Assembly: GCA_963764725.1 (NCBI GenBank)
Contig: CAVXTM010000012.1
Location: 1 to 64,000, forward strand
Origin: an uncultured Gammaproteobacteria bacterium
GTDB lineage: Bacteria > Pseudomonadota > Gammaproteobacteria > JACCXJ01
Length of the DNA: 64,000 nt
Reading direction: 5' to 3'
Within the stretch, counting starts at the first letter, position 1, and each line of letters starts with the position of its first letter. The notes beneath the pieces were generated by a model, which saw only the letters and a program-made list of their open reading frames with translations, had not been told where the DNA came from and did no database searches. This document shows positions 3,783-33,477 of the stretch, piece by piece. The translations under genes were made by a program, and so were the position numbers.

Positions 3783-4043
3783 ATGAAAAATATTAAGGGC
3801 GTTTTATTGGCCACGGCTGCTGCGGCGTTATTCGTGAGCCAACCCATACTGGCGGAAGACGTCCACCCCGTCGCCGAAGGTAAGGTAAGATGTGGCGGCG
3901 TTAACGCGTGCAAAGGCACCTCGGAGTGCAATACCAAAGCCGATGTTAACGCCTGTAAAGGGAAAAACGCGTGCTCCGGACAAGGCTGGGTATCCTTGAC
4001 CAAGGAGGAGTGCGACGCCAAAGGCGGCAAAGTGACCGAATAA
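3783..4043 (+). CDS. Secreted 6-Cys bufferin (BufA2-like) precursor peptide
   Basis: AGGAGG RBS, Sec signal peptide, core CGGVNACKGTSEC..NACKGKNACSGQGW..EEC; lies directly upstream of DUF692 and DUF2063 genes. Confidence 0.85.
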   Translation: MKNIKGVLLATAAAALFVSQPILAEDVHPVAEGKVRCGGVNACKGTSECNTKADVNACKGKNACSGQGWVSLTKEECDAKGGKVTE

Positions 4044-4088
4044 GGGCTAGAGAGGTTGAGGCGGGGCCGGTTGGGCCCCGCCGGTCCA

Positions 4089-4961
4089 ATGCTCCCCACT
4101 TCGGAAAAGCGATTTCCGGCGCTCGGTTTTGGCCTCGGTCTCCGCAAGGAGCATTACGAAGTCGTCCTCGCCAGCCGGCCACCGCTCGGGTGGTTCGAAA
4201 TAGTCTCTGAAAACTTTATGGTGGCCGGCGGCAAACCCCTCGATTGCCTCGAACGCATCCGCGCCGTTTATCCGATCGTGATGCACGGCGTCTCGCTCTC
4301 CATCGGCGGGACCGATCCCATCGATGTAGGCTACCTCAAGCAACTCAAGACCTTGGCCGATCGCATCGAGCCCGCCTGGATTTCCGATCATCTGTGCTGG
4401 ACCGGTGTGAAACCCGTTAACCTGCACGATTTAATGCCCTTGCCTTACACCGCCGAGGCTTTGCATCATGCCGCGGAGCGCGTGCGGCAGGTTCAAGAGT
4501 ACCTGGGACGGCGGATCCTGCTGGAAAACGTGTCGAGCTACCTCGACTACCGCGCCTCGGAAATGCCGGAGTGGGAATTTCTCGGAGCCCTCGCCGAGGA
4601 ATCCGATTGTCTGCTTCTGCTCGATATCAATAACGTGTACGTCAGCGCCTGCAACCATGCGTTCGATCCGTACACCTACATCGAACATCTGCCACCGACA
4701 CGGGTGCAGCAATTTCATCTCGCGGGCCATCGTGATTATGGAGCCTACCGCATCGATACTCACGACGAGCCCATAATCAATCCCGTGTGGGACCTCTATG
4801 GCAGGGCAATTACGCTTTTCGGCAAGTTGTCTACCATGATCGAGCGCGATGGTAATATTCCCCCGTTCGAGGACTTGCTCGCGGAGCTGGCGCAGGCTGA
4901 GCGGATCGCCACGCAAGCGCTCCCGCCGCACGATTCCTCGCGGGCCGTGGCGACCGGCTAG
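4089..4961 (+). CDS. DUF692 multinuclear non-heme iron oxidative enzyme (MNIO, BufB-like)
   Basis: GLGLR, HGVSLSIG, SDHLCW, LLENVSSY, LLDINNVYV, FHLAGH, IDTHD and IERD motifs. Confidence 0.95.
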   Translation: MLPTSEKRFPALGFGLGLRKEHYEVVLASRPPLGWFEIVSENFMVAGGKPLDCLERIRAVYPIVMHGVSLSIGGTDPIDVGYLKQLKTLADRIEPAWISDHLCWTGVKPVNLHDLMPLPYTAEALHHAAERVRQVQEYLGRRILLENVSSYLDYRASEMPEWEFLGALAEESDCLLLLDINNVYVSACNHAFDPYTYIEHLPPTRVQQFHLAGHRDYGAYRIDTHDEPIINPVWDLYGRAITLFGKLSTMIERDGNIPPFEDLLAELAQAERIATQALPPHDSSRAVATG

Positions 4962-4973
4962 GCTATCCGATCC

Positions 4974-5795
4974 ATGCCGAACCTGCGTGAGCTACAGCAA
5001 TCCATTCAAGCCTATGTGCTTGCGCGCTGCCCGGGCGCGCAAGTCGAGGTGCTGGCGAGCCCCTCGGTAAGCGCCGAGACGCGCCTCGAGATTTACGCCA
5101 ATGCCTATCGTGTACGGCTCCGAGAAGCTTTGGCGATCGACTTCCCCGCATTGCGGGCCATGGTCGGTCCGGAGCGCTTCGCTCATTTAGCCGCGGCCTA
5201 TACCGATGCCTATCCGTCCGGGCATTTTTCCATACGCTACTTCGGGCAGCACCTCCACGCTTTTCTCGCCTCGTCCGACGATTTCCGCAATGAACCTTGG
5301 CTTTCGGAACTCGCGGCCTTCGAATGGCGGCTGGGTGAGGCCTTCGATGCCGCGCATGCACCGCCCCTGACGGCAGAGCCGCTTGCCCAGCTTGCGCCCG
5401 CCGCGTGGTCTAACATCGGCCTCGTCCTGCACCCATCGGTGCGGCGCTTGGATTTGGGCTGGAATGTAGCCGAGATCTGGCAGGCCGCCGATCGCCATGA
5501 GACGCCGGGAACACCCCTCGCCTACCCGCACCCGCTGACGTGGCTAATCTGGCGTCAAGAACTGAAAACCTTTTTCCGCTCGCTGGAGCGCGAAGAAGCC
5601 TGGGCGCTCGATGCGGTCCACAACGGCACGCGCTTCGGTGATCTCTGTGAAGGGCTGTGCCGTTGGCTGCCAGAGCACGAGGTCGCTCAGCGTGCGGCAG
5701 GGTTTTTAAGACGTTGGATTAATGATCAGCTCGTGACGGCCATCGACGCCGAGCCTGGCTTGCCGCCGAATCACGCCCCGGTACAACCCCGGTAG
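4974..5795 (+). CDS. DUF2063 MNIO partner protein (BufC/HvfC-like)
   Basis: RLEIYANAYRVRLREAL..DFP and ELAAFEW motifs; follows the DUF692 gene. Confidence 0.9.
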   Translation: MPNLRELQQSIQAYVLARCPGAQVEVLASPSVSAETRLEIYANAYRVRLREALAIDFPALRAMVGPERFAHLAAAYTDAYPSGHFSIRYFGQHLHAFLASSDDFRNEPWLSELAAFEWRLGEAFDAAHAPPLTAEPLAQLAPAAWSNIGLVLHPSVRRLDLGWNVAEIWQAADRHETPGTPLAYPHPLTWLIWRQELKTFFRSLEREEAWALDAVHNGTRFGDLCEGLCRWLPEHEVAQRAAGFLRRWINDQLVTAIDAEPGLPPNHAPVQPR

Positions 5796-6697: not shown

Positions 6698-8146
6698 TTA
6701 TCTTCCGGTGCGATTTAACTTCGAGAGCCGATTGATGGCCTCCGTGGTCTTATCAGGAAGACGACCGCTGACGTTCTTCTTGCCCAAGCTCTTCTGCAAG
6801 GTACTAAACGTCGTAAGGGCACCGGCATAGTTACCAGCAAGTTCTTGAAAGCTTCCAACGAAGAACTGGTAAAGGTCTCGCTTGTCCTCGGAGACGGTAT
6901 CCTCAGGAAATAACCATTGGAAAGTCGCCAAGTGGTCCGTCGGCGACAGGGCAGCGAGAAATGATTGCTGCTCTGTCGCGATGAGCATGCGCGAGTAATA
7001 TATGTGCCACAAATTTGACCACCGAACCGAATAATCGCGTTCGTCTGGCGGCAGTGATTCGCTATTGAGGCGCATGTCGTTGACAACGCGAATCGCCTCG
7101 TCTTCTAAGGCTTCGATCCGGTAGTTCAGGAACGCGGCGAGCTGCATCCGGCGAACATATGGACGTTCCTTGCCAGTCGCAAGCGCACGCTCGAAATGTT
7201 GTTTCGCTTCGCCGAGCGATCCGTGTGAGGCCAAGATGTGAAATCCCGACATCGCATGGGCGTAGGTGTTCTTGGGATCGAGGGCAAGCGCCCGCCGATA
7301 AAATTGTTCCGGCTTGAGTCCTCCTTGACCCTCACGTGACTTGAGAAAATCCCCCCACCCCATGTGGGCAAAACAGTCAGCTGCGGGTAACTTGTCCGGT
7401 GAGACCGCACATCGGGACAGCGCCGGAAGGACCTCGTCCACAATCGCCGAGAAACTGCCCTTGCCGACAGTGATACGCACATTCTCCAACCATGCCATGG
7501 CCAGCTTAGCTTCGTTCTCATGGACCTCGGGATTGTCGGGCGCTAACAACCGGGCTTTCTCGAAAAGTCGCCAGGCGTCCTGGTAATGCCCGTTATCTTG
7601 TTGGATCTTCGCCTCACTAAATAAACGCCCCAACGCCGTACGCTCCACCCGGACTTGCTGATACCACCAGCCAGCCCCAGCGCCGACGATAGCCACCGCG
7701 AGGAGCACGAGCAGTTGCGCTCGATATCGTTGGACAATTCGTAGCCACCCAGACTTAGGTATCCGGTGGATCTCGGCTGCAATCGTCGCTGCAACGTTTC
7801 CTGATGGCTGAAGGACTGTCCCGGCACGGAGGTATGGAGGAATCTCGGCCTTTGGGGTCGGCATCGCCATTACCGAGAGCACATAGCCCCAAGGTCGGGG
7901 CCACTTGTGCTCCGCGAAATCCAACTCCGTCAAGGTATAACGGCCCGCGGTGACAGAGTGAGGGCTAATGAGGAAAACGAAGAGTTGACTATCTTCGATC
8001 GCTTCGCGAATCTTCGCGTTGTAAGCTTCGCCAGCAGCGAGAGCCGAGCGGTCGAAGAAGACCGTGTGATTTTCTGCCCGTAGCGCGAGCGCGATCTCCT
8101 TCGCAAGCTCGCTTTGTTCAGAGGCGTACGATAGAAAAATCTTCAT
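6698..8146 (-). CDS. TIR domain + single TM helix + TPR repeat protein
   Basis: N-terminal KIFLSYAS..VFFDR..YTLTEL (TIR_2 with catalytic Glu), hydrophobic LLVLLAVAIVGAGAGWWY, then TPR-like helices (YRRALALDPKN, FERALA). Confidence 0.85.
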   Translation of the reverse strand: MKIFLSYASEQSELAKEIALALRAENHTVFFDRSALAAGEAYNAKIREAIEDSQLFVFLISPHSVTAGRYTLTELDFAEHKWPRPWGYVLSVMAMPTPKAEIPPYLRAGTVLQPSGNVAATIAAEIHRIPKSGWLRIVQRYRAQLLVLLAVAIVGAGAGWWYQQVRVERTALGRLFSEAKIQQDNGHYQDAWRLFEKARLLAPDNPEVHENEAKLAMAWLENVRITVGKGSFSAIVDEVLPALSRCAVSPDKLPAADCFAHMGWGDFLKSREGQGGLKPEQFYRRALALDPKNTYAHAMSGFHILASHGSLGEAKQHFERALATGKERPYVRRMQLAAFLNYRIEALEDEAIRVVNDMRLNSESLPPDERDYSVRWSNLWHIYYSRMLIATEQQSFLAALSPTDHLATFQWLFPEDTVSEDKRDLYQFFVGSFQELAGNYAGALTTFSTLQKSLGKKNVSGRLPDKTTEAINRLSKLNRTGR

Positions 8147-8335: not shown

Positions 8336-8623
8336 CTGTAACATTCGGCGGAGAACCGGCAACGGCGATGGTACGGCATTTACGCTCCCCCTGCCCGGTC
8401 AACCTGCTTGCGCACCAGATTCTATACGGGTTGCCCGGACGTCGATGAAGCTACACATCAGGCCACCTAAATGACCCCTTCCCGCCCCCGCGCGGACCGC
8501 CGCATCACCGCCCTGCCCGTCCAATGAAGCAGGGCAGGTAGTTGTTACCCGTTGCGCTGCTACAATAATGATTTTGCGCAACCAGGCAGGCATTTCCCCC
8601 ACCCTTGCGATTGCAAAGGATCG

Positions 8624-9268
8624 ATGAAGCATAGAACCAACACGGAATGGCTGGAGGAGCTAGAGGCCCTGGACCCACTGCGGGAAGATGCTCTCAGGGA
8701 CCTCCGCGAGGGTATCTTGCGGGCAGCGCGAGCCTACCTGACAAAGCAGTTCGTGGGACGCGGCTCCTTGTCCGCCGAGGAGGCCCACCACCTCGCCGAG
8801 GATTGTACCCAAGAGACACTCCTTGCCATCCGTAGCAACCTGGCCGGCTTCCGCGGCGACAGTCAGTTCACCACCTGGGCCTATGCCATCGCGATACGCA
8901 CGGTGCTGGCGGATCTGCGCCGCAGGCGCTGGCAGAAGGTCAAGCGGGACCCGGAGCTCCTCGGGAAACAAACTCCGGCGTGGCCCCTGGACGCTTCGGC
9001 GCCAGGCCCAGACCGCAGTTTTCAGCAGCTAGAGGCATGGCGGATCTTGACGCGTCTCATCGAATCGGATCTCACGCCCAGGCAGCGCGCCGCGCTCGTC
9101 GCTCACGCCTTCGATGAAATGCCGCTCGATGAAGTCGCCGCCTGGCTGGGCACCAACCGCGATAACGTGTACAAGCTGCTGCACGACGCCCGCAAGAAGC
9201 TGAAACGTGCCCTCCTGGCGCGCGGCCTCACCTTGGCAGAGGTCTTAAAGATGTTCGCTATCGATTGA
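8624..9268 (+). CDS. ECF RNA polymerase sigma-70 factor
   Basis: Region 2 AEDCTQETLL..FRGDSQFTTWAYAIA; region 4 LTPRQRAAL..EVAAWLGTNRDNVYKLLHDARKKL. Confidence 0.92.
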   Translation: MKHRTNTEWLEELEALDPLREDALRDLREGILRAARAYLTKQFVGRGSLSAEEAHHLAEDCTQETLLAIRSNLAGFRGDSQFTTWAYAIAIRTVLADLRRRRWQKVKRDPELLGKQTPAWPLDASAPGPDRSFQQLEAWRILTRLIESDLTPRQRAALVAHAFDEMPLDEVAAWLGTNRDNVYKLLHDARKKLKRALLARGLTLAEVLKMFAID

Positions 9269-9436
9269 GCCAGTTCGGCCGCTGCAGCCACCCCGAGCCA
9301 TCAGTGAATATTGCACTGCGGATCTGTGACATTTTGCATAGAAATCGCCATCGCGAAAGGTTATACATGCGGGGCGGCTCGTCTTTAAAAAGTAGCACGT
9401 GCACCCAGCGTGATGAGTGGGGTTAGTGGCCCCGGG

Positions 9437-9462
9437 GTAAGAGCGGGGGCGCTCAAGACATC
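9437..9462 (+). promoter_or_regulatory. Putative ECF promoter (GTAAGA-N16-CATC) of the anti-sigma gene
   Basis: GTAAGA at 9437-9442 and CATC at 9459-9462; the same motif and spacing recur at 9730-9755. Confidence 0.6.
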
Positions 9463-9490
9463 CTATAAATCGGGATCGAGGACCCTTGTT

Positions 9491-9712
9491 ATGAAAAGGA
9501 AAGCATTCAAGCGATTGGTACATACCATCTTCGGCGCGGAAGAGGAAGAGTTAGTCTGCTCGGAATTCTTCCGCCAGCTGCCCCGCTATGTGGATCTCGA
9601 GCGATCGGGTCAGGACGCCGCTGCACTGCTCCCCAAAATCAGCCACCATATCCATCAGTGTCCCGAATGCGAGGAGGTATACAAAGCCCTTCGCGACGTC
9701 GCGGATAGCTGA
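9491..9712 (+). CDS. Soluble zinc-finger (ZAS/zf-HC2) anti-sigma factor
   Basis: LVCSEF..LPRYVD and HxxxCxxC (HIHQCPEC); follows the ECF sigma gene. Confidence 0.85.
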   Translation: MKRKAFKRLVHTIFGAEEEELVCSEFFRQLPRYVDLERSGQDAAALLPKISHHIHQCPECEEVYKALRDVADS

Positions 9713-9729
9713 GGCACTCAGTCCATCAC

Positions 9730-9755
9730 GTAAGATCCGTCCCTCTTATCGCATC
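9730..9755 (+). promoter_or_regulatory. Putative ECF promoter (GTAAGA-N16-CATC) of the multicopper oxidase operon
   Basis: GTAAGA at 9730-9735 and CATC at 9752-9755, 55 bp before the MCO start; same spacing as the 9437 copy. Confidence 0.6.
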
Positions 9756-9810
9756 TAATCGGCAGCGGGAAAGACCCGCGGTCGGTTTTCCACAAGAGGA
9801 GAAAGATGCG

Positions 9811-10785
9811 ATGACGAGACCAACGGTCCCGCTGGGGATCGCCTTCCTCGTGGCGCTGTCCCTGACGATCGTGCGCAGCGCACCGTCGGCACAGGCGACG
9901 GAGGGCGGCGATACCCACGTGATCACCATCCAGGCCGGCGCCCTCCCCTCCGGCCAGCTCGCCTACCGGATGGTCAGCCACAAGATCAAGACTGCGGGGG
10001 GCGGCGAGGCCGATCGCACTGATCGCTACTACGCCGGTCCCACGATCCCTGGCCCAACCATCATCATTAAGGAAGGCGATACCGCGGAGGTGACGCTGGA
10101 ACACGGCATCGCCGAGTCTCAGCAGCCGGTCAGCATCCACGTCCACGGGGTGCATTACAAGGCCGACAGCGACGGCACCATGAAGGTGTTGAACGGGCTC
10201 AAGGATGAGGCCGCCTTCCCTGGCCAACCCTACACGTACAAATGGACCGCTGCGCCGGGCACCGCCGGCACCTGGGCCTACCACGACCACGCCTTCGGCA
10301 ACCCTATGGTTGGGGCCGAAGACAAGGGCTTGTACGGCACGCTGATCGTCAATCCTACCGACGGTAAGGTGCGGGCCATGATCGACGGCAAGCACGTGGA
10401 CGTCGCTGTGGCCGATATCAAACGCGAATTCATCCTGTGGATGCACGAGACCACCTTCTGGGGCATGGAGGTCAACCACATCCTGAAGGGCAAGCAGGTC
10501 CCGCTCTGGACCAACCCGACGGTGGGCGCACGTTTAGGCGAAAAGGTCAGATTCCACGTCATCGGCCTGGGCACGGCCTTTCATACCTTCCATCTGCACG
10601 GACACCGCTGGTTGGAGTCCGGCACCACCAGTGTCATCGACACCGCCAACCTCGGCCCCATCGGCCGCCAGAGCTTCGTAGTCGAGGCCGGTGAGGGCGT
10701 GGGGCCGGGTGAATGGCACTACCACTGCCACGTCATCCAACACATGCAGTCCGGGATGATGGGCGACTTCCGGGTCGTTGAATAG
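9811..10785 (+). CDS. Secreted two-domain multicopper oxidase (SLAC-like small laccase, type B)
   Basis: Signal peptide; copper motifs IHVHG, YHDH, HTFHLHGH and YHCHVIQHMQSGM, with the T1 site in domain 2. Confidence 0.9.
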   Translation: MTRPTVPLGIAFLVALSLTIVRSAPSAQATEGGDTHVITIQAGALPSGQLAYRMVSHKIKTAGGGEADRTDRYYAGPTIPGPTIIIKEGDTAEVTLEHGIAESQQPVSIHVHGVHYKADSDGTMKVLNGLKDEAAFPGQPYTYKWTAAPGTAGTWAYHDHAFGNPMVGAEDKGLYGTLIVNPTDGKVRAMIDGKHVDVAVADIKREFILWMHETTFWGMEVNHILKGKQVPLWTNPTVGARLGEKVRFHVIGLGTAFHTFHLHGHRWLESGTTSVIDTANLGPIGRQSFVVEAGEGVGPGEWHYHCHVIQHMQSGMMGDFRVVE

Positions 10786-10813
10786 CGCTACCGATCAATA
10801 ACAGGAGAGAACC

Positions 10814-12640
10814 ATGCACAGCAACTACAAGTTTATCGCCGCGATCGCGGCCTTGAGCTTTGTTTCCACTCAAGCGGCCGAGCCGGCCACCGCCGAACCC
10901 AAAGAAGAAGACGTCATCATAAGCCGGCCGGGTGTGCTACCCGCCGCGATACTGGAGATGACCGACGAGCCCGGCAAGTGGTTCAAAGACCCCAAGGACG
11001 GCGACTCGCTGGTGGCCGTGAAACCGGGCGAGGCCGTGCTGATTAAAATGACGGACACCAACACCGAACACACCATCACCAGTCTCTTTTGGCAACCCGG
11101 CGCGGCCAAGTTTCCCGTGGATCAGGACAAGGTGTCCAACAGCAGCGTGGCCCAGACCTTCGACAAACCGGGGCTCTATGTCTTTACCTGCAAGGTCCAT
11201 CCCTACATGTTCGGCGCGGTCGTGGTCGACGACCCGGAAACCGAGGGATTGGACATCGGTGCCGAGATCCAACTTGTGACCGGGGTCAAGGTCCCGACCA
11301 GCAGCGATATCGCCAAGAAATTGCTGCGGACCTTCTTCGTAGCAACGACGCCCACCCTGTGGCGCGACTATGGCAAGCCGACCTGGGAGGTGAAGCTCCC
11401 CGATCTGTTGTTGAACCTGGGCGGCACCGTCATCAAGCTAAGCGCATTGGACGTCAGCGCACCCAACAAGCTCAACAATCCCAAGACGCCAGGGATAGGC
11501 GAGGTCTGGGTCAACACCCAGTTCGAGACCATCAGCGGCAAGACCAAACCAGGCTCCGCGACGCAAATAGACGCCTCGACGTGGACCATCAAACAGAAGG
11601 TCAAAGGGGTTGAGCATAACATGAACAACCCGCACAACATGTGGACCGACGCGAGCTACAAGTACATCTACCAAACCGAGTGGTTCGACAAACGGCTCAC
11701 CACCTTCGACCGCGAATCCGGTAAGGTCTACGGCACACAGACGGTCGGCATTAATCCCTCGCATGCGATGTCTAACCCCAAGAACGGCATGCTCTATGTC
11801 GCCATCAACGGTGAGGAGAGCGTGGTCAAGCTGACCCCGGGCGCCTCGCCCACGGCAATGGGCGCCATCAACGTCGGCACCCACAGCGGTCCCCACGGTC
11901 ACCACATCACCGACGACGGGAAATACATGATCACGCCGAATGCCCTCGCCTCCAGCGTCTCGGTCGTGGACCTCGCGAGCGAAGAGGTGACGCAGATACC
12001 TACCGGCGGGGTCATTCCCATCGCCGCCTGGAGCGACATGAAGCACAAGGCCTATGTCGCCAATCTACTCGGTACGCCGCCTGACATGCTGGCCTCGTTA
12101 TCGGTGATCGACCTCGATGCCAAGAAGAAGGTGAAGGACATCAATATCGCTTCGGATTACGACCCGATCAGTGGTGACCACAAGGGCGAGGCCTACGGAC
12201 TGCTGCCGATCCAAACCCCCGTCAGCCCGGATGGTAAGTACGTGGTCACGGCCAACACCCTGAGCGGTACGATCACTATTCTGGATACCGCCACCGACAA
12301 GGTCGTGAAGAGCCTGCCCTGCGAGCCCGGCTGCCACGGCGTCAACTTCGGGCTGAAGAAAGATGGCGGTTACTATGCCTATGTCGCCAGCAAGTTCGCC
12401 AACGACCTCATCGTCATCGACATGGACAAGCTCGACATCACCGGCCGCATTTCGCTCGCCGATCCGAAGGACGCCCAAATCACGGGGAACAACGGCATGG
12501 GCGGACAAGGCGTGCTGCCCTTACCGCTGGCCGAGCACGGCATGCTCGCCCCCACCCTCAAGCTTTCCGGCACCGGCAAGCTGAGCCCCGAGGTCGAGGC
12601 CTGGCTCAAGCTCATCACCAAGAACCAGCGCGGTAGCTGA
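10814..12640 (+). CDS. Secreted type-1 cupredoxin + YVTN/YncE-like beta-propeller protein
   Basis: Signal peptide; EHTIT...YVFTCKVHPYM blue-copper ligands; propeller blades (LYVAING, VSVVDL, YVANL, VSPDGKYVVTAN, AYVASK). Confidence 0.8.
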   Translation: MHSNYKFIAAIAALSFVSTQAAEPATAEPKEEDVIISRPGVLPAAILEMTDEPGKWFKDPKDGDSLVAVKPGEAVLIKMTDTNTEHTITSLFWQPGAAKFPVDQDKVSNSSVAQTFDKPGLYVFTCKVHPYMFGAVVVDDPETEGLDIGAEIQLVTGVKVPTSSDIAKKLLRTFFVATTPTLWRDYGKPTWEVKLPDLLLNLGGTVIKLSALDVSAPNKLNNPKTPGIGEVWVNTQFETISGKTKPGSATQIDASTWTIKQKVKGVEHNMNNPHNMWTDASYKYIYQTEWFDKRLTTFDRESGKVYGTQTVGINPSHAMSNPKNGMLYVAINGEESVVKLTPGASPTAMGAINVGTHSGPHGHHITDDGKYMITPNALASSVSVVDLASEEVTQIPTGGVIPIAAWSDMKHKAYVANLLGTPPDMLASLSVIDLDAKKKVKDINIASDYDPISGDHKGEAYGLLPIQTPVSPDGKYVVTANTLSGTITILDTATDKVVKSLPCEPGCHGVNFGLKKDGGYYAYVASKFANDLIVIDMDKLDITGRISLADPKDAQITGNNGMGGQGVLPLPLAEHGMLAPTLKLSGTGKLSPEVEAWLKLITKNQRGS

Positions 12641-12728
12641 ACCACATAGCAGACCTCCGTCGTAGGGCCCCGCTTGGCACTCGGATTTCTCTCGACGCTC
12701 GTCCAGTGAGCGGGCGTTTTGTCGGACT

Positions 12729-14588
12729 TCAGGGTCCGCCCGGAATCGGTCCCGCGTCCTCGAAGATCTGCTCGCTCGCATCGGTTGCGTTGCCCGATCG
12801 AAACTGCTCTTCGTAGAGACGCGAGTAGATCCCGCCGCGCGCCAGTAGCTCCGCATGGGTGCCCTGCTCGACCAGCTCCCCGCGATCGAGGACCAGGATC
12901 CGATCGGCCTGCAGGATGGTCGACAGACGGTGAGCGATCACGAGGCTCGTCCGGCCGACAAGGATTCCGGCCAGGGCTTCCCGGATCAGCGTCTCCGAGC
13001 GTGAATCGAGCGCCGATGTGGCTTCGTCCAGGATGAGCATCCGGGGATCCTTGAGGATCACGCGGGCGATCGCGATGCGCTGCTTCTCCCCGCCCGAGAG
13101 CTTGTAGCCCCGGTCCCCGACCACCGTGTCGTAGCCCTCGGGCAGCGCCTGGATGATCTCGTGGATCTGGGCTCGCCGGCACGCCGACTCGATCTGGCCG
13201 TCGGTCGCGTCCCGCCGCGCGTAGCGCAGATTCTCCAGCACCGAGGCATGGAACAGATAGCTCTCCTGGGTCACCTTGCCGATCGTGCCGGCCAGGCTCT
13301 CGAGCGTGAGATCGCGCAGGTCCTGGCCGTCGATGCGCACCGCGCCCGAGGTCGGGTCGTAGAGTCGGGAAGCCAGGTAGGTGATCGTGGTCTTGCCGGA
13401 TCCGGAGGGGCCGACGAGCGCGACCAGTTCGCCGGGCCGCGCCTCGAACGTGATCCCGCTCAGCACGGGTTTGCCCGGTTCGTAGGCGAAGGTCACGTCG
13501 TCGAACCGCAAATGCCCGCGCGCCGCCGTCAAGGTCGCGGCTCCCGGGCGCTCCGCCACTTCCTCGTCGAGATCGAGGTAGGCGAAGATGCGGTCGAACA
13601 GCGCGACGGCCGTCGTGAGATCCACGTGCACGTTCACCAGGGCCGAGGCCGGGCCGTAGAGCCGGCCCAGGTAGGCCACGAGGGCGACGATCGTGCCCAC
13701 CGTGAGGGCGTCTTGAATCGCGAGCCAGCCGCCGTAGCCCCAGATCAGTGCGGGGCCCACCGAGGCGAACAATAGGAGAAAGAAGAAGAACCAGCGCCCC
13801 ACTAGGTTCTGCCGCAGGGTCAGCCGCTGGACTTGACGGTTCTTCTCGCGGAAGCGCCGAACCTCGTACTCGCGCGCGCCGAAGAGCCGGACCAGCAGGT
13901 GGCCGCTCACCGAGAGCGTCTCCTGGACGAGTGCCGTGAGCTCGGCCACGCGCTCCTGGGTCTCGCGCGCGATGCGCTTGCGCGCCTGGCCTACGCGCCG
14001 GGTCGGCAGAATGAAGATCGGCAGGATCCCGATCGCCAGGAGCGAGAGCTGCCAGTTGATGCTGAAGATCACGAGCAACGTGGTAACGACCACGAGCACG
14101 TTCGTGGCGACCGCCACCAGCGTGCCCGTGACCACGCCCTGGATGCCTCCGACATCGCTCTGCAGGCGCGATAGAATCTCGCCCGATTTTGTGTTCGTGT
14201 AGAAGCGCAGGGACTGGGCAAGCAACTTCTTGTACATCTCGTTCCGGATGTCGAACATGACAGCCTGGCCGACCCGGACGGCAAGATAGTTCTGGAGCAC
14301 GCCGACGAGACCGCCCAGAGCCGGGGTCGCGATCATGAGACCGACGCACCAGAAGAGCGTTCGCGTGTCACCCAGAGGAATCGCGCGGTCGATTATCTCG
14401 CGCACGAGGAGGGGCGGGATGAGCCCGAGGAGCGCTCCGACCAGGACGCACAGGACGATCCAGAGCGCGTCGCGCCAGTAAGGCCGGAAGTAGGCCGCCG
14501 CGCGGTGCAATGCGCCCCTGGTCAGCCTGGGCGTAGGTCTCGATTCGTCGAAGCGGATGTGGAACACCTGACCGAACAGGCTCGACAT
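12729..14588 (-). CDS. ABC exporter, fused permease/ATPase (MdlB/MsbA-like)
   Basis: N-terminal TM domain; Walker A GPSGSGKT, LSGGEKQR signature, ILDEATSALD and IAHRLST. Confidence 0.95.
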   Translation of the reverse strand: MSSLFGQVFHIRFDESRPTPRLTRGALHRAAAYFRPYWRDALWIVLCVLVGALLGLIPPLLVREIIDRAIPLGDTRTLFWCVGLMIATPALGGLVGVLQNYLAVRVGQAVMFDIRNEMYKKLLAQSLRFYTNTKSGEILSRLQSDVGGIQGVVTGTLVAVATNVLVVVTTLLVIFSINWQLSLLAIGILPIFILPTRRVGQARKRIARETQERVAELTALVQETLSVSGHLLVRLFGAREYEVRRFREKNRQVQRLTLRQNLVGRWFFFFLLLFASVGPALIWGYGGWLAIQDALTVGTIVALVAYLGRLYGPASALVNVHVDLTTAVALFDRIFAYLDLDEEVAERPGAATLTAARGHLRFDDVTFAYEPGKPVLSGITFEARPGELVALVGPSGSGKTTITYLASRLYDPTSGAVRIDGQDLRDLTLESLAGTIGKVTQESYLFHASVLENLRYARRDATDGQIESACRRAQIHEIIQALPEGYDTVVGDRGYKLSGGEKQRIAIARVILKDPRMLILDEATSALDSRSETLIREALAGILVGRTSLVIAHRLSTILQADRILVLDRGELVEQGTHAELLARGGIYSRLYEEQFRSGNATDASEQIFEDAGPIPGGP

Positions 14589-15488: not shown

Positions 15489-15902
15489 TCACAAGGCAAC
15501 CACACGCAGGCCCAGCGCTTCGGCTGCGGCGCACTGGCGCATGTCGGCGGAGATGAATACTTCGGCCGCGCTGATCACAGCGGCGCCCAGGTGGATGGCA
15601 TCCATGCCGCGCACGGGATGCCTTTCGAGCGCCTGAACCGACTGCCGGATCACCTGGGGCGTGGTATCGCAGATCAGTGCGTCGGCGATATCCGCCATAA
15701 GATCATTCTTCAGTCGCCGGTATTGGCCGGCGGACAGCTTGCCCTCGCGCTTGAGGCGGCAAAATGCCGAGAACAGTTCCGGTATGGCGATCACCGAAAG
15801 AGCAAGCTCGGTTGCCTGATCACACCATGCTAGGACTTCCGCCGTGCCGGGTTCGCTTATGTAACGCTTGGCGAAAGCGGACGAGTCGAAGTAGACCCGC
15901 AT
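15489..15902 (-). CDS. vapC: VapC PIN-domain toxin
   Basis: YFDSSAFAKRY..E, DAIHLGAA and FISAD PIN motifs; start overlaps the antitoxin stop. Confidence 0.92.
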   Translation of the reverse strand: MRVYFDSSAFAKRYISEPGTAEVLAWCDQATELALSVIAIPELFSAFCRLKREGKLSAGQYRRLKNDLMADIADALICDTTPQVIRQSVQALERHPVRGMDAIHLGAAVISAAEVFISADMRQCAAAEALGLRVVAL

Positions 15903-16123
15903 CAGCTGCCGCGCTCTTCCAAGATCAGCTTACTGATCGCCACACCATCCATTGCTAGCGGGCGCGCCTTGCGCAGCTTCCAGGAAGGCAGGTCGGTCTG
16001 AATGGGTTGGATCTCGGCGATCGGCTTGCCGTTGCGCAACACGCGAACCGTCTCGCCGGCCTCGACCAGATCGAAAAAATGCTTTGCTTGATTGCGGAAT
16101 TCGGTGAAGGTAGCCTCACGCAT
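15902..16123 (-). CDS. Phd/YefM family antitoxin
   Basis: TFTEFRNQAKHFFDLVEAGETVRVLRNGKPIA. Confidence 0.9.
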   Translation of the reverse strand: MREATFTEFRNQAKHFFDLVEAGETVRVLRNGKPIAEIQPIQTDLPSWKLRKARPLAMDGVAISKLILEERGS

Positions 16124-16144
16124 GTTCAATCTCCCACGCCTATT

Positions 16145-16331: not shown

Positions 16332-18600
16332 CTATCGTCGCGCCCGCCGCGTCGTGAGGACCGCGAGCACGGGGAGTAGAAATAGGCACGCGATGACGGC
16401 AGCGATGATGCCGAGATCCATCACCAGACCAAAGTTCCGTAGCGCGGGCTGGCTGGTGAGCATGGGCACGCCGAAACCGATGCACGAGGCGAGGCCGGTG
16501 AGCAGGATGGGCACTCCGATGTGCGCGTAGAGGTGCACGTAATCGCGCTGTTGTTGCAAAGCCATGAGGACATGCAGGCTGTAATCGATGCAGAGCCCGA
16601 GCAGGAGCGGCACACATAAGAGCGAAAGCGGATTGAGCGCGGCGCCGGTGAGCGCGATCAGCGCGGCGAGGAGGAGGAACGAGAGGCCGAGGGCGGCAAG
16701 ATTGAGAAGCACCATGCGCAATGAACGTTGCGCGAGCGCGCACAGCACAACGATGCATGCGAGCACCCAGCCGCTGAGGCGGCGAAGGTCGGCGAGCGCG
16801 GTGCGGTTGAGATCGTCTTTGAGCGTGACCCAGCTCACCGGCAGCACGTTCGCGCCGGCGATGCTGATGCCGCCGGGCGGCACTGGCCGCTCGGCGGCGC
16901 CGGGGAGGCGGACCATGGCGCGATAAAAGCCAGATCCTTCGCGGTGAAAGTTGGCCAGGAGCGGGGAGACGGCGGTGAAGGCGTCGGGCGCGCCGGCGGC
17001 AGCGCGATTCAGGGTCTCGACGAGTGTGAGGGTGGGACTGCTCCATTCGCTGCCGAGACCGGCAGTATCGAAAGCGGCGCGGAGTCGTGGGGTGATGTCG
17101 TTTTTCCACAGCGCGCGGTTTTTGCGCTGGTGCGAGGGCGCGGGCAGGAAGGCGCTATGCGGGGAGCGACGCCCGCCGTTAACGCGCACGGCGAGCTCAT
17201 CGGCGGCGCGCCGGACCGCGTCCCAGCTCGGCGCCTCGACGAGGTAAATCGCGTCCTGCCAGCTCGGGTCTCTTTTCGCGAGTACCTGTTGGCCGCGAAA
17301 AGCGGCGGTCTGCGTGGGTTGGAGGTGATCGAGGTCCGGCGCGTACAGGGCGCTTGGATCGCGCCAGAGCCAAGCGGCGGCGGTGAGGCTAGCGAGCGTG
17401 GCAAGCACGAGCAACGCGCGGCCGCGGCGTGCCGTCGTGTGCGCCATAGCGCCGCTCATGCGGGCTAGAAAGGGCGGTGCCTTCGGCGGGCGCATGGCCC
17501 ACGCGAAGGGAAGCAGCCAAGTGGCGAACAACGCCGAGGCGAGGAGCCCCGCGGCCACGAGTAAGGCGAGCTGGCGTAGGCCAGGCAGGGACGAAAACAC
17601 GAGCACCAGAAACGCCGCGGCCGTCGTGACCGCGCTGAACCAGATACCGCGGCAGAGCCGCGCCCATACGGTGCCGTTGTCGCGGAAATGCGAGGCGTAG
17701 TGATGATAAACAAGGATGCTGTAATCCATGCTGATCCCGAGCAGGATGCAAGCGAAGCCCATGCTGATCACATTCAGGGAGCCGATGGCGACGCGCGCGG
17801 CGATGAGACCCACGCCGAGGGCGAGAAATTGCCCGAGCAAGATCCACCCAAGCGGCCTCAACGTGCGGTAGAAGGCCCAGAACGCTGCGCTGACGAGCAC
17901 GGTGGCGACGATGATCATCAAGCGCATATCGTGGCGCATCTGCGTCGAGATTTCGGCCGTGAAAGCGGGTCGGCCGGTAAGCAGTAAGTGCGTCTCGCCG
18001 GGCAGCGTTTGCCGCACGGCGGCGCGGAAGTCGCGGCCGAGAAGTCCTCACACATCCTCGAAGGTGATGAGGGCTCGCGTGGCGGTGATGGTGAGCGCAC
18101 TCGCTCGGCCGTTCGGTCCATTGGAAATGGTTGTGGTCTTTGCCCGTGCCGAGCGCGTCGAGTAGGCCGAGCGGGTCGAATCGCCGGCGCATCAGCTCTG
18201 CGGGATCGAGCGCGCCGGTGAAGCACTGATGTTACCGCGGGCAGGGACTCGTGCACGAGCGGCGATCGTCATTCCCGGCCCCGGCCCGAGCGCGCTCGAC
18301 GACGCGCGAGAATCGCTCGCGAACGGCAAGACTCTACCAAAAAATCGCCCACGCGGCGAGCCGCCGGGCGGTATGCGTCGCCATTCATCGCCGGGCGCTG
18401 CGATGGATTCGACGCCGGGCAGCGCGGCCTAGGACGGGCCGCGCTTTACGTGAAGCACCGCATCGCGCGCGGTGGCGGGCAGGACGTGTCGTGCGGCGAC
18501 CAGGACCACTTCGCGATCGCTGGCGAATGGGCCGCTGGGAAATGAGGTCGTGAGCCCGGCGAGATCACCGGCACGCTGCACCTCCGTAGCCACGCGGCGA
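16332..18600 (-). pseudogene. MMPL/RND-family exporter with a degraded 5' part
   Basis: The intact 3' ORF (561 aa) has GISMDYS and GLCIDYS MMPL motifs. Upstream 18017-18600 reads only in short broken frames (DPLGLLDAL, FASDREVVLV); the 5' limit is approximate. Confidence 0.7.
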
Positions 18601-21114: not shown

Positions 21115-22140
21115 TTATCCAATACCGCCGTTAATGCCAATCACCTGGCCGGAAATATAGCTTGCGTGCTCCGAAGCCAGAAACGCGATCAAGTGGGCCA
21201 CCTCTTGGGGTGTGCCGGCGCGTTTCATCGGCACTAAGGCTTCGATCTGCGCGGGTTTGAAGGCACGTTCGATCATCGGCGAGGCGATGATCAGGACGTC
21301 ACCGGCATATGCATTGGCACTAAACCCGAAAAACCACCCGGCAACGACCCCGGTGGCAATCCCACCGACCAATCCGCCAAGAACACCGCCAATTGGGTCG
21401 GCGAACTTCCACAATCGAGATTTCCCACGCTTCCCGACTGTACGGAGCCACGAAACTATTCCCATCACCCAGGCTCCCAAAGCGCCCCAATAGATGGAGC
21501 TAAAGAGACAAACCCAGCTTACTAATGCCGGCGTGACCTTTGGATCGAGCGCCCGGTACTGGAAGTAATAGGTCACTCCGATGATCAGACCGGCAACCAA
21601 CCCACCCAGGCAGCCACCCATCAGCCCGCCAATGATCGGACGAAAAGAACCCAGTCCGTTGAGTGTGGGCGTAAAGCGGATGTCGCTCTGTACATCGAGA
21701 TGCGATAGAGATCTGCTAATTGTATTCTGCTCCGCGGATGTGTAGTCCTGCACACGTGCCGTGATCTCGCTCAGTAAGCTCTTTAATTCCGGGTGTTCCC
21801 GCTCGCCGTGCCAATCTACAAGGTTCACGGTGTGTAGCTGGCCGAATCCGAGTGGTATCTCCACCGCATCGATCAAAGCTGGCACCAGAACCTCCCGATT
21901 CTTGCCTACCTCAGCTTCATCCCGCACCCAACCAGATCCACGGGAAGCCTTGGACCAAAGCACGACCACGCACTTCGCCACCGAAAGGGCTGCCTGAATC
22001 TCCTCTTCCAGGTCGTGCCCAGGGCGAAGTTTGGGGTCCCACCAAACTGTCAACCCCGCGTCCATGAGCACTTTAGCAAGGCACTTGGCACGTGTCCGGT
22101 CTTCTCTAGCGTAACTAATGAAAACGTCGCTCATGATCAC
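21115..22140 (-). CDS. Chimeric ORF: TIR domain + Gly-rich TM helices fused in frame to a FabG C-terminus
   Basis: DVFISYAREDR..VWWD..SGWVRDEA (TIR); the last ~58 aa (IIASPM..VPMKRAGTPQEVAHLIAFLAS..YISGQVIGINGG) are an SDR/FabG tail. Confidence 0.8.
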   Translation of the reverse strand: MIMSDVFISYAREDRTRAKCLAKVLMDAGLTVWWDPKLRPGHDLEEEIQAALSVAKCVVVLWSKASRGSGWVRDEAEVGKNREVLVPALIDAVEIPLGFGQLHTVNLVDWHGEREHPELKSLLSEITARVQDYTSAEQNTISRSLSHLDVQSDIRFTPTLNGLGSFRPIIGGLMGGCLGGLVAGLIIGVTYYFQYRALDPKVTPALVSWVCLFSSIYWGALGAWVMGIVSWLRTVGKRGKSRLWKFADPIGGVLGGLVGGIATGVVAGWFFGFSANAYAGDVLIIASPMIERAFKPAQIEALVPMKRAGTPQEVAHLIAFLASEHASYISGQVIGINGGIG

Positions 22141-22226: not shown

Positions 22227-23132
22227 CTAAGCCTCTGTGAAGTAGTCGGAGTCGATCTTCTTAATCTCGTAGGAGGCGACCGATGAAACACCGACACTAT
22301 GATCGATCATCAGCTGCGCGAGTAACTCTCCGTCAATCAGGATGATCTTGCTGTCAATCCGGGAAACGTATTCCTCCGCATCCTTGGAAAAGCATGATGT
22401 CGTAATTAAGATGCCCTTTCTCGCGCGATGGCCTTGTAGCGCCCCCGCAAACTTCTGAACCTCAGGGCGTCCGACCACCCCATCCCAGCGTTTCGCCTGG
22501 ATATAGATGATGTCCAAGCCAAGCCGGTCTTCCTTGATAATACCGTCTATTCCATCATCGCCACTTCTTCCGACTGCTCTTCCCGCATCCTGCCGAGTAC
22601 CGCCGTATCCCATCTTCACGAGCACATCCACAACCAGACGCTCAAAGAACGCGGGCGAACAGCTCTTAACAGTTTGGAGGATTTCGGCAACCAAACTCTG
22701 CCTGACCTTTTGGTAAGCGGTTTCTAACGATTCCTCAGGGGTTTCCTTGGATGGCTCTAACGCTTCCTCTGAGGGCGCCGGCTCCCTTCGAAGAGAACGG
22801 AACTCCACGAACTCGGAAAATTGTTCTAGGAACGAGACATTAATCTTTGGAGGATTCTTCTCCAGAACCTGAAGTCCGCGCGGGGTTATGCGGAAATAGC
22901 CTCGTCGGGGTGATTCCAAAAGACCGGCCTTTTTCATATAGGTGCGAGCCCAGCCGACACGGTTATCGAAAGTCGGCTGCCGGCCGCTGGGCAGTAATTC
23001 CTTTTGCTCTTCTTCAGTGAGTCGAAATTCAGCCACCAAGACCTCAATGGCCTCCCGAAGAGAATGCTCCTGCATGTCGCCAGCCAAGCGGAGTAGCGGC
23101 AACATGATGGATTCGTAGTCTGGAATGGCCAT
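22227..23132 (-). CDS. mrr: Mrr type IV restriction endonuclease
   Basis: MAIPDY, NRVGWARTYMKKAGL, DDGIDGII..DRLGLD.IYIQAKRW and IDSDYF. Confidence 0.95.
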   Translation of the reverse strand: MAIPDYESIMLPLLRLAGDMQEHSLREAIEVLVAEFRLTEEEQKELLPSGRQPTFDNRVGWARTYMKKAGLLESPRRGYFRITPRGLQVLEKNPPKINVSFLEQFSEFVEFRSLRREPAPSEEALEPSKETPEESLETAYQKVRQSLVAEILQTVKSCSPAFFERLVVDVLVKMGYGGTRQDAGRAVGRSGDDGIDGIIKEDRLGLDIIYIQAKRWDGVVGRPEVQKFAGALQGHRARKGILITTSCFSKDAEEYVSRIDSKIILIDGELLAQLMIDHSVGVSSVASYEIKKIDSDYFTEA

Positions 23133-32523: not shown

Positions 32524-33276
32524 ATGTCTCCAACAATCAGAGCCAGAAATCTTGCTATTATCGTGACCGCCACGGCTCTATCCGTGACGGCGCCAACCGC
32601 GTCTTCGAATGAGGAGCTCATCCGCTTGTCTCCAAGCGATGAGAATTGGGTGATGCAAGTGCAAGGATTACGTGCGCGCACTACAGCAAAATGACGGATA
32701 TAAAAGCGGACAATGTCGAGCGGCTCCGGCCCGCATGGAGCTTTTCGACTGGCGTGTTGCACGGTCACGAGGGTGGGCCGCTCGTCGTGAACGGCATCAT
32801 GTATATCCACACGCCATTCCCCAATAATACTTTTGCTTTCGACCTCGAGAGACCGGGAGAGATCCTATGGGAGCACAAGCCCAAGCAAGACCCAGCGGCG
32901 CGCGCGGTGGCCTGCTGCGACGTCGTCAACCGCGGTCTGGCCTACGCCGACGGCAAGATTTTCAAAACCCTATTGGACGGCCACATCGTGGCGCTGGACG
33001 CCAAGACGGGGAAAGAGATCTGGAAGATGGAGAACTCCGATATCAGGGTAGGCTCGACGCTTACCGTTGCACCCTTTGTGGTGAAGGATAAGGTTCTAGT
33101 TGGATCGTCAGGCGCTGAGCTCGGGGTGCGCGGGTATGTCACCGCCTACGACCTCGACAGCGGCGAGATGAGATGGCGCTGGTACGCCACCGGCCCCGAT
33201 GAGGAGATGGGCCTGGCCCCAGACTTCAACGGTAAGAACCCGCATTACGGCCAGAAAGGATTGGGCCTCAAGACAC
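32524..33276 (+). pseudogene. xoxF: PQQ-dependent methanol dehydrogenase (XoxF2/MxaF-like), frameshifted and truncated
   Basis: AGGAGG RBS and signal peptide; indels near 32660; [33 protein letters not shown] and NPHYGQ.GLG. Homology ends after about 250 of the expected ~600 aa. Confidence 0.9.
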
Positions 33277-33292
33277 TGAGACTATCTGCTAC

Positions 33293-33408
33293 AGGAAGTT
33301 TTCCCACACAGGTGGGAATATGTACCCGGATAACATGTGAAGTTATCACACGCGAATTGCTGCTGAGGGACTCTATCGAAAAGGGGCTTTCGCTTGTAGA
33401 TTATGCGG
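33293..33408 (+). promoter_or_regulatory. Conserved upstream element, copy 2 (before the TonB-dependent receptor)
   Basis: AGGAAGTTTTCCCACACAGGTGGGA..ATGTGAAGTTATC..GAATTGC..GGGACTCTATCGAAA..AGATTATGCG. Confidence 0.75.
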
Positions 33409-33477
33409 CACAGAGCAAGCCGCCAAAGCCGCGAACAACAATGGCCTTCTGAGCATCGGCACCAATAATAACGTGAC

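Follow-up and report, generated by a model that had tools for sequence, protein, structure and literature searches.

Genes and control elements of the locus

We describe a four-gene copper module at positions 8624-12640 of a 64-kb stretch of contig CAVXTM010000012.1 from an uncultured gammaproteobacterium. The whole stretch is referred to as the window, and all coordinates are relative to it. The list of open reading frames (ORFs) places four ORFs here, all on the forward strand, which encode an extracytoplasmic function (ECF) sigma factor, an anti-sigma factor, a secreted multicopper oxidase (MCO) and a secreted protein that joins a type-1 (T1) cupredoxin to a beta-propeller (hereafter the propeller protein). 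It is highly probable, in our judgment, that the MCO and the cupredoxin-propeller constitute a functional unit under ECF control, and we lean towards the fuller reading that the locus is a self-contained, stress-inducible periplasmic copper oxidoreductase, i.e., one enzyme under ECF control. The first-pass annotation of the window, made from its letters alone, had listed the four genes as intact and co-oriented, and every ORF was recovered. Its descriptions of the two secreted products, namely a small laccase (SLAC)-type two-domain MCO with all copper ligands and, 28 bp later, a T1-cupredoxin/beta-propeller protein, were likewise borne out.

The MCO gene (9811..10785, + strand) encodes a secreted, SLAC-like type B two-domain protein of 324 aa, as judged by Pfam, a search for solved relatives and alignment. 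Cu-oxidase_3 covers residues 78-183 and Cu-oxidase_2 residues 234-322; among solved structures the small laccase 3t9w comes closest (E=4.2e-36), and 50 solved two-domain laccase sequences match with E<1e-25. The copper motifs HVH, HDH, HTFHLH and HCHVIQH...M are all present and supply 12 of 12 ligands (H110/H112, H158/H160, H258/H261/H263, H305-C306-H307, H311 and M316), with the T1 site in domain 2 and its ligands within the last 20 residues of the protein. Among 19 aligned orthologs these ligands are invariant or at least 90% conserved, the only departure being locus L042, in which the C-terminus is frameshifted. The single cysteine is the T1 ligand C306, and a Met-rich segment is lacking (at most three Met in any 30 residues). 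A CueO-type cuprous oxidase was considered as the identity of the MCO and ruled out by the absent Met-rich region. Both the MCO and the propeller protein begin with a hydrophobic Sec-like leader, judged by eye and by hydropathy. A twin-arginine export signal is usual for SLAC; the N-terminus of the MCO (MTRPTVPLG...) contains no RR pair, and the leader of the propeller protein is also without a twin arginine. Among the 49 ortholog N-termini listed, those of L004 and L057 begin with MRR, while L021, L014 and L020 have RR in uncertain upstream extensions.

The propeller gene (10814..12640, + strand) starts after a gap of 28 nt from the MCO stop at 10785 and encodes a 608-aa protein, characterized with Pfam, NCBIfam and a family alignment, in which a linker-like S-x-P-G-x-x-P segment (residues 37-43) is followed by the T1 cupredoxin, a conserved connector and a YVTN/lactonase-type beta-propeller. 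The cupredoxin ligands are H86, C126, H129 and M132, in a loop that aligns with those of pseudoazurin, amicyanin and a NirK-tethered cupredoxin, and the ligand set predicts a type-1 (blue) copper site for the N-terminal domain. The propeller domain matches YNCE/lactonase-type families in Pfam and has 1l0q as its best solved match (E=4.5e-21); PDB sequence searches returned nothing past generic YVTN propellers and cupredoxins. There are three cysteines in all.

Upstream, the first gene (8624..9268, + strand) specifies a 214-aa ECF (group IV) sigma factor, recognized by Pfam Sigma70_r2 and Sigma70_r4_2 and by TIGR02937 (86.6 bits against a cutoff of 42.9). It holds only regions 2 and 4 of sigma-70, matches the solved ECF sigma factors SigE, SigW and SigH with E values of 1e-5 to 1e-4, and has orthologs of 52-57% identity adjoining the module in alphaproteobacterial methanotrophs. 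The anti-sigma gene (9491..9712, + strand) begins 222 nt downstream of the sigma gene; its true start is the ATG at 9491, the Met at which homolog alignments begin. Its 73-aa product is a soluble zinc-binding anti-sigma (ZAS)-type protein with an H-x3-C-x2-C motif, in full Cys23 and HH-x-H-Q-C-x-x-C, and three cysteines in all. The motif and the upstream Cys are invariant in 19 distinct homologs, and no hydrophobic or transmembrane segment is present (maximum Kyte-Doolittle value of 0.56 in a 19-residue window). The protein scores below the curated RsrA model TIGR03988 (19.9 bits versus a cutoff of 62.5, E=5.7e-4), and its Cys and His positions align with those of the RsrA structure 5frf at an E value of 0.35, which is not significant.

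The motif GTAAGA-N16-CATC occurs exactly twice in the 64 kb, against 0.11 matches expected, and only one of 100 shuffles reached two. These sites were assigned as ECF-type promoters: P1 (9437..9462, + strand), followed by CTATAA, lies before the anti-sigma gene, and P2 (9730..9755, + strand), followed by TAA, lies before the MCO-propeller operon. The arrangement had been taken in the first-pass annotation as tying regulator to cargo, and it proved to be conserved across Alpha- and Gammaproteobacteria. Among 25 sigma-bearing loci (24 with an anti-sigma gene adjoining the MCO gene, plus the window), the strict motif stands at the P1 position in 22 and at the P2 position in 24, and a relaxed form is found at P1 in 25/25 and at P2 in 25/25. 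Strict matches in 2.23 Mb of locus sequence number 53, and 45 of them fall at P1/P2 positions. The consensus across loci is GGTAAGA-N16-(C)GCATC, and the longer -35 form revealed one further site, directly before folE in L011. In the window scan, the sigma gene had no motif copy of its own in front of it, and no further regulon members, as motif copies, were found elsewhere in the 64 kb. A consensus scan gave a weak sigma-70-like promoter candidate upstream of the sigma gene (TTGTTA-16-AATAAT, 8542..8569, + strand) that matches 9 of 12 consensus positions; two such sites were found versus 1.5 expected.

Downstream of P2 lies a conserved MCO-operon leader (9756..9814, + strand) comprising a terminator-like hairpin (9765-9779, extending to 9789 with its T run), a Shine-Dalgarno GGAG and a two-codon mini-ORF, ATG-CGA-TGA (9806-9814), that overlaps the MCO start codon. 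Both alpha- and gammaproteobacterial loci keep the leader element GATGCGATG, whose reverse complement is the -10-proximal CATCGCATC. In RNAalifold, the 5' end of the leader pairs with the start region, without compensatory changes there; the leader is conserved in sequence, but its fold does not reach significance (z=-1.48). No riboswitch or known RNA was matched in the leader by Rfam at E<=1, the sole hit being a chance snoRNA elsewhere. At the end of the operon, 56 nt past the propeller stop, a consensus scan detected a terminator-like hairpin with a T run (12696..12722, + strand; hairpin at 12696-12712).

Linkage, fusion and conserved sites across the family

Co-occurrence or fusion of the two genes across genomes, which the first-pass annotation had singled out as the thing to look for, was found in both forms: the genes are adjacent in 54 of 60 methanotroph-type loci and fused in 121 of 297 family members. 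Adjacency and fusion together support its proposal that the MCO and the cupredoxin-propeller act as one unit. The homolog scan covered one genome per species and yielded at least 576 propeller relatives, from which 79 loci were kept. Sixty of these are of the methanotroph type, with propeller proteins 64-95% identical to that of the window, and the MCO directly upstream shows 63-93% identity. Five of the six loci without an upstream MCO begin at a contig edge, and the sixth, L056, is a fragmented copy. The estimated gap between the two genes is 0-83 nt, with a median of 35 (53 loci). Named hosts include Methylocystis, Methylocella, Methylocaldum, Methylococcus, Methylomicrobium, Methylobacter, Methyloglobulus, Methylohalobius and Methylothermaceae, as well as Methylotuvimicrobium, including M. 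buryatense 5G and M. alcaliphilum. Two labels stand apart: the propeller protein of L027, labeled Gammaproteobacteria, is identical to that of the Methylocystaceae locus L005, and L020, labeled Methyloversatilis, groups inside Methylocaldum. Both are likely binning errors in public metagenome-assembled genomes (MAGs).

The remaining 19 of the 79 loci, with 44-49% identity, belong to Nitrososphaera, Nitrospira, Acidobacteriota, Chloroflexota, Binatia and a betaproteobacterium. At a single locus, in Ca. Angelobacter (Acidobacteria), an H-NOX gene directly follows the standalone cupredoxin-propeller gene (L072:9797-10378, - strand).

Fused forms emerged from a protein search against 1.84 billion representatives, which returned 3576 matches at E<=1e-3, 86 of them reaching E<=1e-30. 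Many of the matched proteins are 850-1112 aa long and are matched at their C-terminal end, and N-terminal Cu-oxidase domains were present in 8 of 18 long representatives scanned. Among the matches listed in a search with P0150, fused proteins measure approximately 890-1130 aa; P0150 itself has an MCO part that shares 54% identity with the window MCO across 290 aa. Hosts of the fused form are Nitrosopumilus adriaticus, Ca. Nitrosocosmicus franklandus, Nitrososphaeraceae, Nitrosomonas and Nitrosospira. The MCO-propeller fusion in ammonia oxidizers, mentioned in the first-pass annotation, is therefore real. One fused protein (P0355) is 42% identical to the window propeller protein (E=7e-151) and 36% identical to the window MCO (E=4e-65). 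Because both window genes are homologous to a single fused protein, they are the split form of an ammonia-oxidizer single chain. MCO1-4 were reportedly defined by Kerou et al. in 2016. P0355 (WP_197731161.1) corresponds to NFRAN_2029, which is called 'MCO3' and annotated as 'Beta-propeller repeat containing protein' in the PMC12448741 supplement. A second 'MCO3' gene, NFRAN_2030, adjoins NFRAN_2029 in N. franklandianus and might supply the trinuclear half that NFRAN_2029 lacks (see below).

In fused forms the S-x-P-G-x-x-P segment comes after the MCO part; in split forms it stands at the start of the mature propeller protein. Both kinds keep it (S, G and P in 97, 98 and 98 of 101 split forms, and in 109, 110 and 121 of 121 fused forms), and it is gapped in 41-54 of 75 standalone forms. 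The MCO domain-2 ligands are kept in 121/121 fused forms. In a FastTree phylogeny of a sample of 113 members, which is unrooted, the methanotroph type is one clade with a support of 100, and a standalone clade has as its sister group the forms that have lost the domain-1 trinuclear His. Explaining the four architecture labels takes seven changes on this tree, versus a minimum of three; because the tree is unrooted, no order of events was assigned.

The claim that the module is undescribed stands in part. The fused archaeal form already carries the label MCO3 (PMC12448741), whereas the propeller/cupredoxin part, the methanotroph operon and its ECF control did not come up in any of our literature searches. 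Full-text searches returned no description of an MCO-cupredoxin-propeller pair or fusion as a unit, and searches with locus tags returned none either. The available part of PMC12448741 contains no discussion of the propeller or cupredoxin part of MCO3.

Conserved sites were tallied over 297 near-full-length members (101 methanotroph-type, 121 fused and 75 standalone). Each cupredoxin T1 ligand is conserved in at least 291 of them. In the propeller, H274, H317, H361 and H508 are each conserved in 296/297 and H363 in 287/297; Q467, W277 and W290 are near-invariant, and Q565 is also conserved. The conserved His, Q467 and Q565 fall one to three residues past the P/G with which the first strand begins in six successive YVTN repeats. 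The near-invariance of the blade-start His in these 297 members is the ground on which the five His, with Q467 and Q565, suggest a putative metal site on the propeller axis (the hub). C503 and C507 are usually conserved and are replaced, mostly by Ala, in at most 10/101 methanotroph-type, 1/121 fused and 5/75 standalone proteins. C503-x3-C507-H508 was considered as a variant haem-c site and rejected: the Cys are replaceable, no haem machinery lies nearby, and the motif is kept in archaeal ammonia oxidizers, which are not known to have c-type cytochromes.

Regulators, mobility and surroundings of the module

The sigma and anti-sigma genes accompany the module in two groups only, the window lineage (L001, L003 and L040) and the alphaproteobacterial methanotrophs. 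Methylococcales are without the ECF pair; 16 loci have instead a divergently placed regulator of the winged-helix type that weakly resembles cyanobacterial SufR (E=1.5e-17, below cutoff), MsvR and 'methanogen output domain 1'. This regulator is 216 aa long and occurs, for example, in L025, L028, L030-L034, L038 and L042. ZAS and SufR/MsvR-type regulator classes sense oxidants, NO or thiophilic metals via Cys or Fe-S, and by analogy the winged-helix protein may be a second thiol or Fe-S type sensor of the module.

In Methylocystis (L006-L009, L050, L080 and L082), folE, a quinol-type NO reductase (qNor; a NorB cytochrome-c-like domain plus COX1), SirB2 and NnrS lie downstream of the propeller gene, and the sigma gene is preceded by an additional propeller gene of the YncE type. 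The whole set of YncE-like gene, sigma, anti-sigma, MCO, propeller, folE ... SirB2 and NnrS is found on two mobilizable plasmids (~215 kb) of Methylocystis rosea. Three observations make it likely that the version under ECF control has been transferred horizontally: these plasmids, the 80% identity between the window module and a Methylocystis module, and the propeller tree, which places the window clade as sister group of the alphaproteobacterial methanotrophs (SH-aLRT 99). A tie to the ammonium-induced 'multicopper oxidases' of plasmid pBSC2-2 of Methylocystis sp. SC2, reported in PMC9600857, received no support, because the plasmid search with the propeller protein matched only the two M. 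rosea plasmids.

Within the window, an ABC exporter gene (12729-14588, opposite strand) is the next gene after the propeller gene. The module had been described as lying in an otherwise decaying region, which is only weakly borne out. The sole sign of decay found near the module is an MMPL-family transporter gene (16332-18192, - strand) that is broken into two frames, 561 and 267 aa long, which overlap; in L002 it is an intact 798-aa ORF, and the split is either a frameshift pseudogene or a sequencing error. Against decay, the flanking ORFs are intact and family-matched, and they are syntenic with L001 and L002, contigs of uncultured gammaproteobacterial MAGs, at 87-94% DNA identity. Defense-like genes are scattered around the module at 6698-8146, 21115-22140, 22227-23132 and 15489-16129, all on the - strand; the set comprises a TIR-TPR protein, a second TIR-domain protein, an Mrr-type restriction endonuclease and a PIN/Phd toxin-antitoxin pair. 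Further away, a 268-aa ORF (32646-33452, + strand) matches dehydrogenases dependent on pyrroloquinoline quinone (PQQ) at profile positions 11-213 of 595 only, and it is probably truncated since only the first third of the profile is matched; a TonB-dependent receptor gene (33478-35823) comes after it.

Also present, 2.8 kb upstream of the sigma gene, is a bufferin-type copper RiPP (ribosomally synthesized and post-translationally modified peptide) cluster (3783-5795, + strand). It consists of a BufA2 precursor gene (3783-4043, + strand; 83 bits against a cutoff of 60), the MNIO maturase gene bufB (4056-4961, + strand; 377 bits against 310) and a gene for an HvfC-like/DUF2063 partner (4974-5795, + strand).

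Such a neighbor is what one would look for if the module served copper homeostasis, with the MCO as a CueO/CopA-like cuprous oxidase, the cupredoxin-propeller binding or delivering copper, and the ECF/ZAS pair sensing copper stress. The hosts are copper-hungry, and sensors built on Zn-thiolate or Fe-S, like those that accompany the module, are open to attack by Cu(I). Archaeal MCO1, 4a and 4b respond to copper limitation, according to PMC12448741. Two opposite-strand genes, however, separate the bufferin cluster from the module. The MCO, besides being without a Met-rich segment, groups with SLAC-type laccases, and the CueO model gives E=0.0014 and 17.5 bits versus a cutoff of 525. The near-invariant T1 site and the five propeller His resemble a redox enzyme rather than a chaperone. 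We therefore consider this alternative distinctly unlikely.

Proposed function and comparison with known systems

We hypothesize that the ECF sigma factor is held by the small cytoplasmic ZAS anti-sigma factor and that, once freed, it would fire two promoters, that of the anti-sigma gene, providing negative feedback, and that of the MCO-propeller operon. The two secreted products would then constitute one enzyme, the split form of the archaeal 'MCO3' single chain. A small substrate would be oxidized at a histidine-lined, probably copper, site at the propeller hub, and electrons would pass from the cupredoxin T1 copper to the MCO T1 copper, the ligands of which lie next to the tether in fused forms. 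Finally, the trinuclear cluster of the MCO would reduce O2 to water. On the oxidase direction of this electron flow, our opinion is evenly divided.

With low confidence, we propose as substrate a reactive nitrogen compound (hydroxylamine, HNO or NO) that would arise as a by-product of copper monooxygenase chemistry. This guess is made because of the hosts, those with names being methanotrophs, ammonia-oxidizing archaea and bacteria, and Nitrospira, and because of the qNor/NnrS neighbors in Methylocystis, the H-NOX neighbor and the NH2OH-to-HNO activity of an archaeal MCO. Bolder, and rather unlikely as it stands, is the idea that the cupredoxin-propeller is a new copper enzyme, a histidine-lined multicopper hub, laid out like that of NosZ, run as a dehydrogenase on hydroxylamine, HNO or NO from copper monooxygenases and, in methanotrophs and many ammonia oxidizers, wired through adjacency or fusion to its own laccase-type terminal oxidase.

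A quite different role has been proposed for MCO3 and could be extended to the window pair, namely that of an extracytoplasmic polymer or phenol oxidase, a true laccase, that modifies the envelope or biofilm matrix, with the propeller as a binding or anchoring domain. SLAC enzymes oxidize phenols, and YVTN repeats occur in S-layer proteins, with 1l0q as the best solved match. NFRAN_2029 ranks fifth in biofilm expression in N. franklandianus (14,073 versus 2,296 transcripts per million, log2 fold change of 3.16; PMC12448741 supplement). A pure binding domain, however, would need neither a near-invariant T1 site nor five hub His, the standalone form exists without any laccase, and control by a cytoplasmic redox-type sensor fits a stress response better than a structural role; we regard a laccase of this kind as very improbable.

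Several observations weigh against a split enzyme that oxidizes nitrogen compounds at the expense of O2. The four domain-1 trinuclear His are kept in 43 of the 121 fused forms and lost in 78, including NFRAN_2029, Nitrosomonas and Nitrosospira proteins, P0399, P0394 and P0429, so that O2 reduction, or a dedicated O2-reducing partner, is not family-wide. Methanotroph-type MCOs, including that of the window, and some of the fused forms keep the complete O2-reducing cluster. What is invariant across the family would thus be the putative hub site plus the two T1 sites. A tblastn search detected an MCO in none of the 19 loci that make up the 44-49% clade, and the propeller enzyme must therefore have other electron partners too; no Cu-oxidase domain was found among 75 neighbors of 14 standalone loci scanned. 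Because the family also occurs in Acidobacteriota, Chloroflexota, Binatia and Amycolatopsis, its tie to copper monooxygenases is an enrichment of unquantified size. PMC12448741 reports that N. maritimus and N. viennensis lack MCO3, which therefore does not belong to the core enzymes of nitrification; the authors favor cell-surface modification in biofilms. The nitrogen substrate stays a guess because of these other phyla without known copper monooxygenases, the non-universal occurrence of MCO3 and the cell-surface role favored in the biofilm paper. As for the host, which may or may not be a methanotroph, no pmo genes lie within the 64-kb window, and the window PpsA has one 97% match, all other hits being at most 75% identical and those to any named gammaproteobacterium 67-71%. 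The hub geometry and the T1-T1 contact are themselves predictions from sequence.

The loss of half of the O2-reducing cluster in 78 of 121 fused forms, with both T1 sites kept, would also fit a scheme in which the electrons run the other way, the hub reducing N2O, NO or nitrite in the manner of NosZ, fed by the T1 coppers, and the MCO serving as an electron-transfer module. The copper propeller and cupredoxin architecture echoes NosZ, and qNor and NnrS are neighbors in Methylocystis. The language-model neighbors listed, once YncE/lactonase families are excluded, are all NosZ families (0.83-0.86, a lead only). NCBIfam hits to L-NosZ and NosZ are weak, at 56.3 bits versus a cutoff of 700 for NF052460, 16.1 versus 625 for TIGR04246 and 14.9 versus 625 for TIGR04244, where a true NosZ used as a control scores 1128 bits. 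NosZ has similar 'pHG/pHD' blade starts, and hhalign places a P-H-G of the propeller protein on the S-P-H-G of NosZ His326, but with a probability of 9%. No Pfam nos_propeller hit appears even at E<=10, and neighbor scans of the window and relatives found no nosDFYL-type assembly genes nearby. The trinuclear cluster of the window MCO, moreover, is complete, and its only known role is O2 reduction. A reductive role is accordingly improbable in our view. Membership of the NosZ or L-NosZ families was ruled out by the curated cutoffs, Pfam at E<=10 and the hhalign result.

If the bolder idea of a new copper enzyme acting on hydroxylamine, HNO or NO is correct, archaeal 'MCO3' and the window operon would together represent one widespread, unrecognized route of nitrogen-oxide turnover, possibly forming N2O or nitrite, which in the window lineage would be switched on by a thiol-based ECF stress circuit and which is plasmid-borne in Methylocystis. 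The system, which we read as an MCO with an appended, probably catalytic, copper propeller, is widespread and uncharacterized; it has been named in part, but as a unit it is undescribed. The model joins three items that have been treated apart, namely the highly expressed MCO3, the methanotroph genes labeled 'hypothetical' or 'copper oxidase', and the standalone cupredoxin-propellers of Nitrospira and Nitrososphaera, and it touches on the copper-based nitrogen chemistry of ammonia-oxidizing archaea and on how methanotrophs handle hydroxylamine and NO. It is a concrete and testable enzyme model: Methylotuvimicrobium buryatense 5G, M. alcaliphilum and Methylocystis rosea are tractable hosts that carry the module, and the ECF circuit provides an experimental handle on the inducer. 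Even with an ordinary substrate (phenols or Cu(I)), a family that has several thousand members in databases would gain its first functional framework.

Among known copper enzymes, NosZ is periplasmic and all-copper, as the propeller protein is predicted to be, and combines His at the inner-strand starts of a beta-propeller with a cupredoxin electron-entry domain. The domain order is reversed, however, the window cupredoxin being N-terminal and having a T1 site with one Cys, whereas NosZ has a C-terminal CuA with two, and five conserved blade-start His in the window family compare with the seven hub His that hold CuZ. Thiocyanate dehydrogenase is a periplasmic beta-propeller with a histidine-bound multicopper centre that oxidizes a small substrate and passes the electrons on. 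It may share its copper propeller dehydrogenase layout with the propeller protein; unlike the window system, it has no cupredoxin and no MCO partner, and PDB searches at E<=1 gave no sequence match to the propeller protein. The propeller protein, while not a member of either family, may work like a copper propeller of the NosZ or thiocyanate dehydrogenase type.

The regulators resemble SigR-RsrA and other ECF-ZAS pairs in uniting an ECF sigma factor with a small soluble anti-sigma factor that carries Cys...H-x3-C-x2-C, and in driving the anti-sigma gene itself from an ECF promoter. The RsrA cutoff is missed, however, and the window -35 element is GGTAAGA, not of the GGAAT/GGAAC type.

SLAC-type small laccases such as 3t9w and 3cg8 (E=4e-36 to 2e-27 against the window MCO) share its two cupredoxin domains, length of ~300 aa, four copper motifs and T1 site in domain 2. 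Unlike them, the window MCO has no twin-arginine leader, and MCOs of its type are always paired or fused with a cupredoxin-propeller and are hosted by methanotrophs rather than actinomycetes. Nmar_1354 (archaeal MCO4a), which oxidizes NH2OH to HNO with O2 (PMC13058606 and PMC12448741), is likewise a two-domain MCO from a copper-monooxygenase organism and shows that hydroxylamine can be a substrate of such MCOs. It belongs to another MCO type and has no propeller partner; the two-domain MCOs of N. viennensis are of type C (PMC11561398).

Closest to the window pair is archaeal MCO3 (NFRAN_2029 of Ca. Nitrosocosmicus franklandianus), which has the same order of MCO, linker, T1 cupredoxin and propeller, and the same hub His and T1 sites. 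It differs in having lost the domain-1 trinuclear His that the window MCO keeps, in being without ECF control, and in forming one polypeptide of 945 aa, where the window has two genes 28 nt apart.

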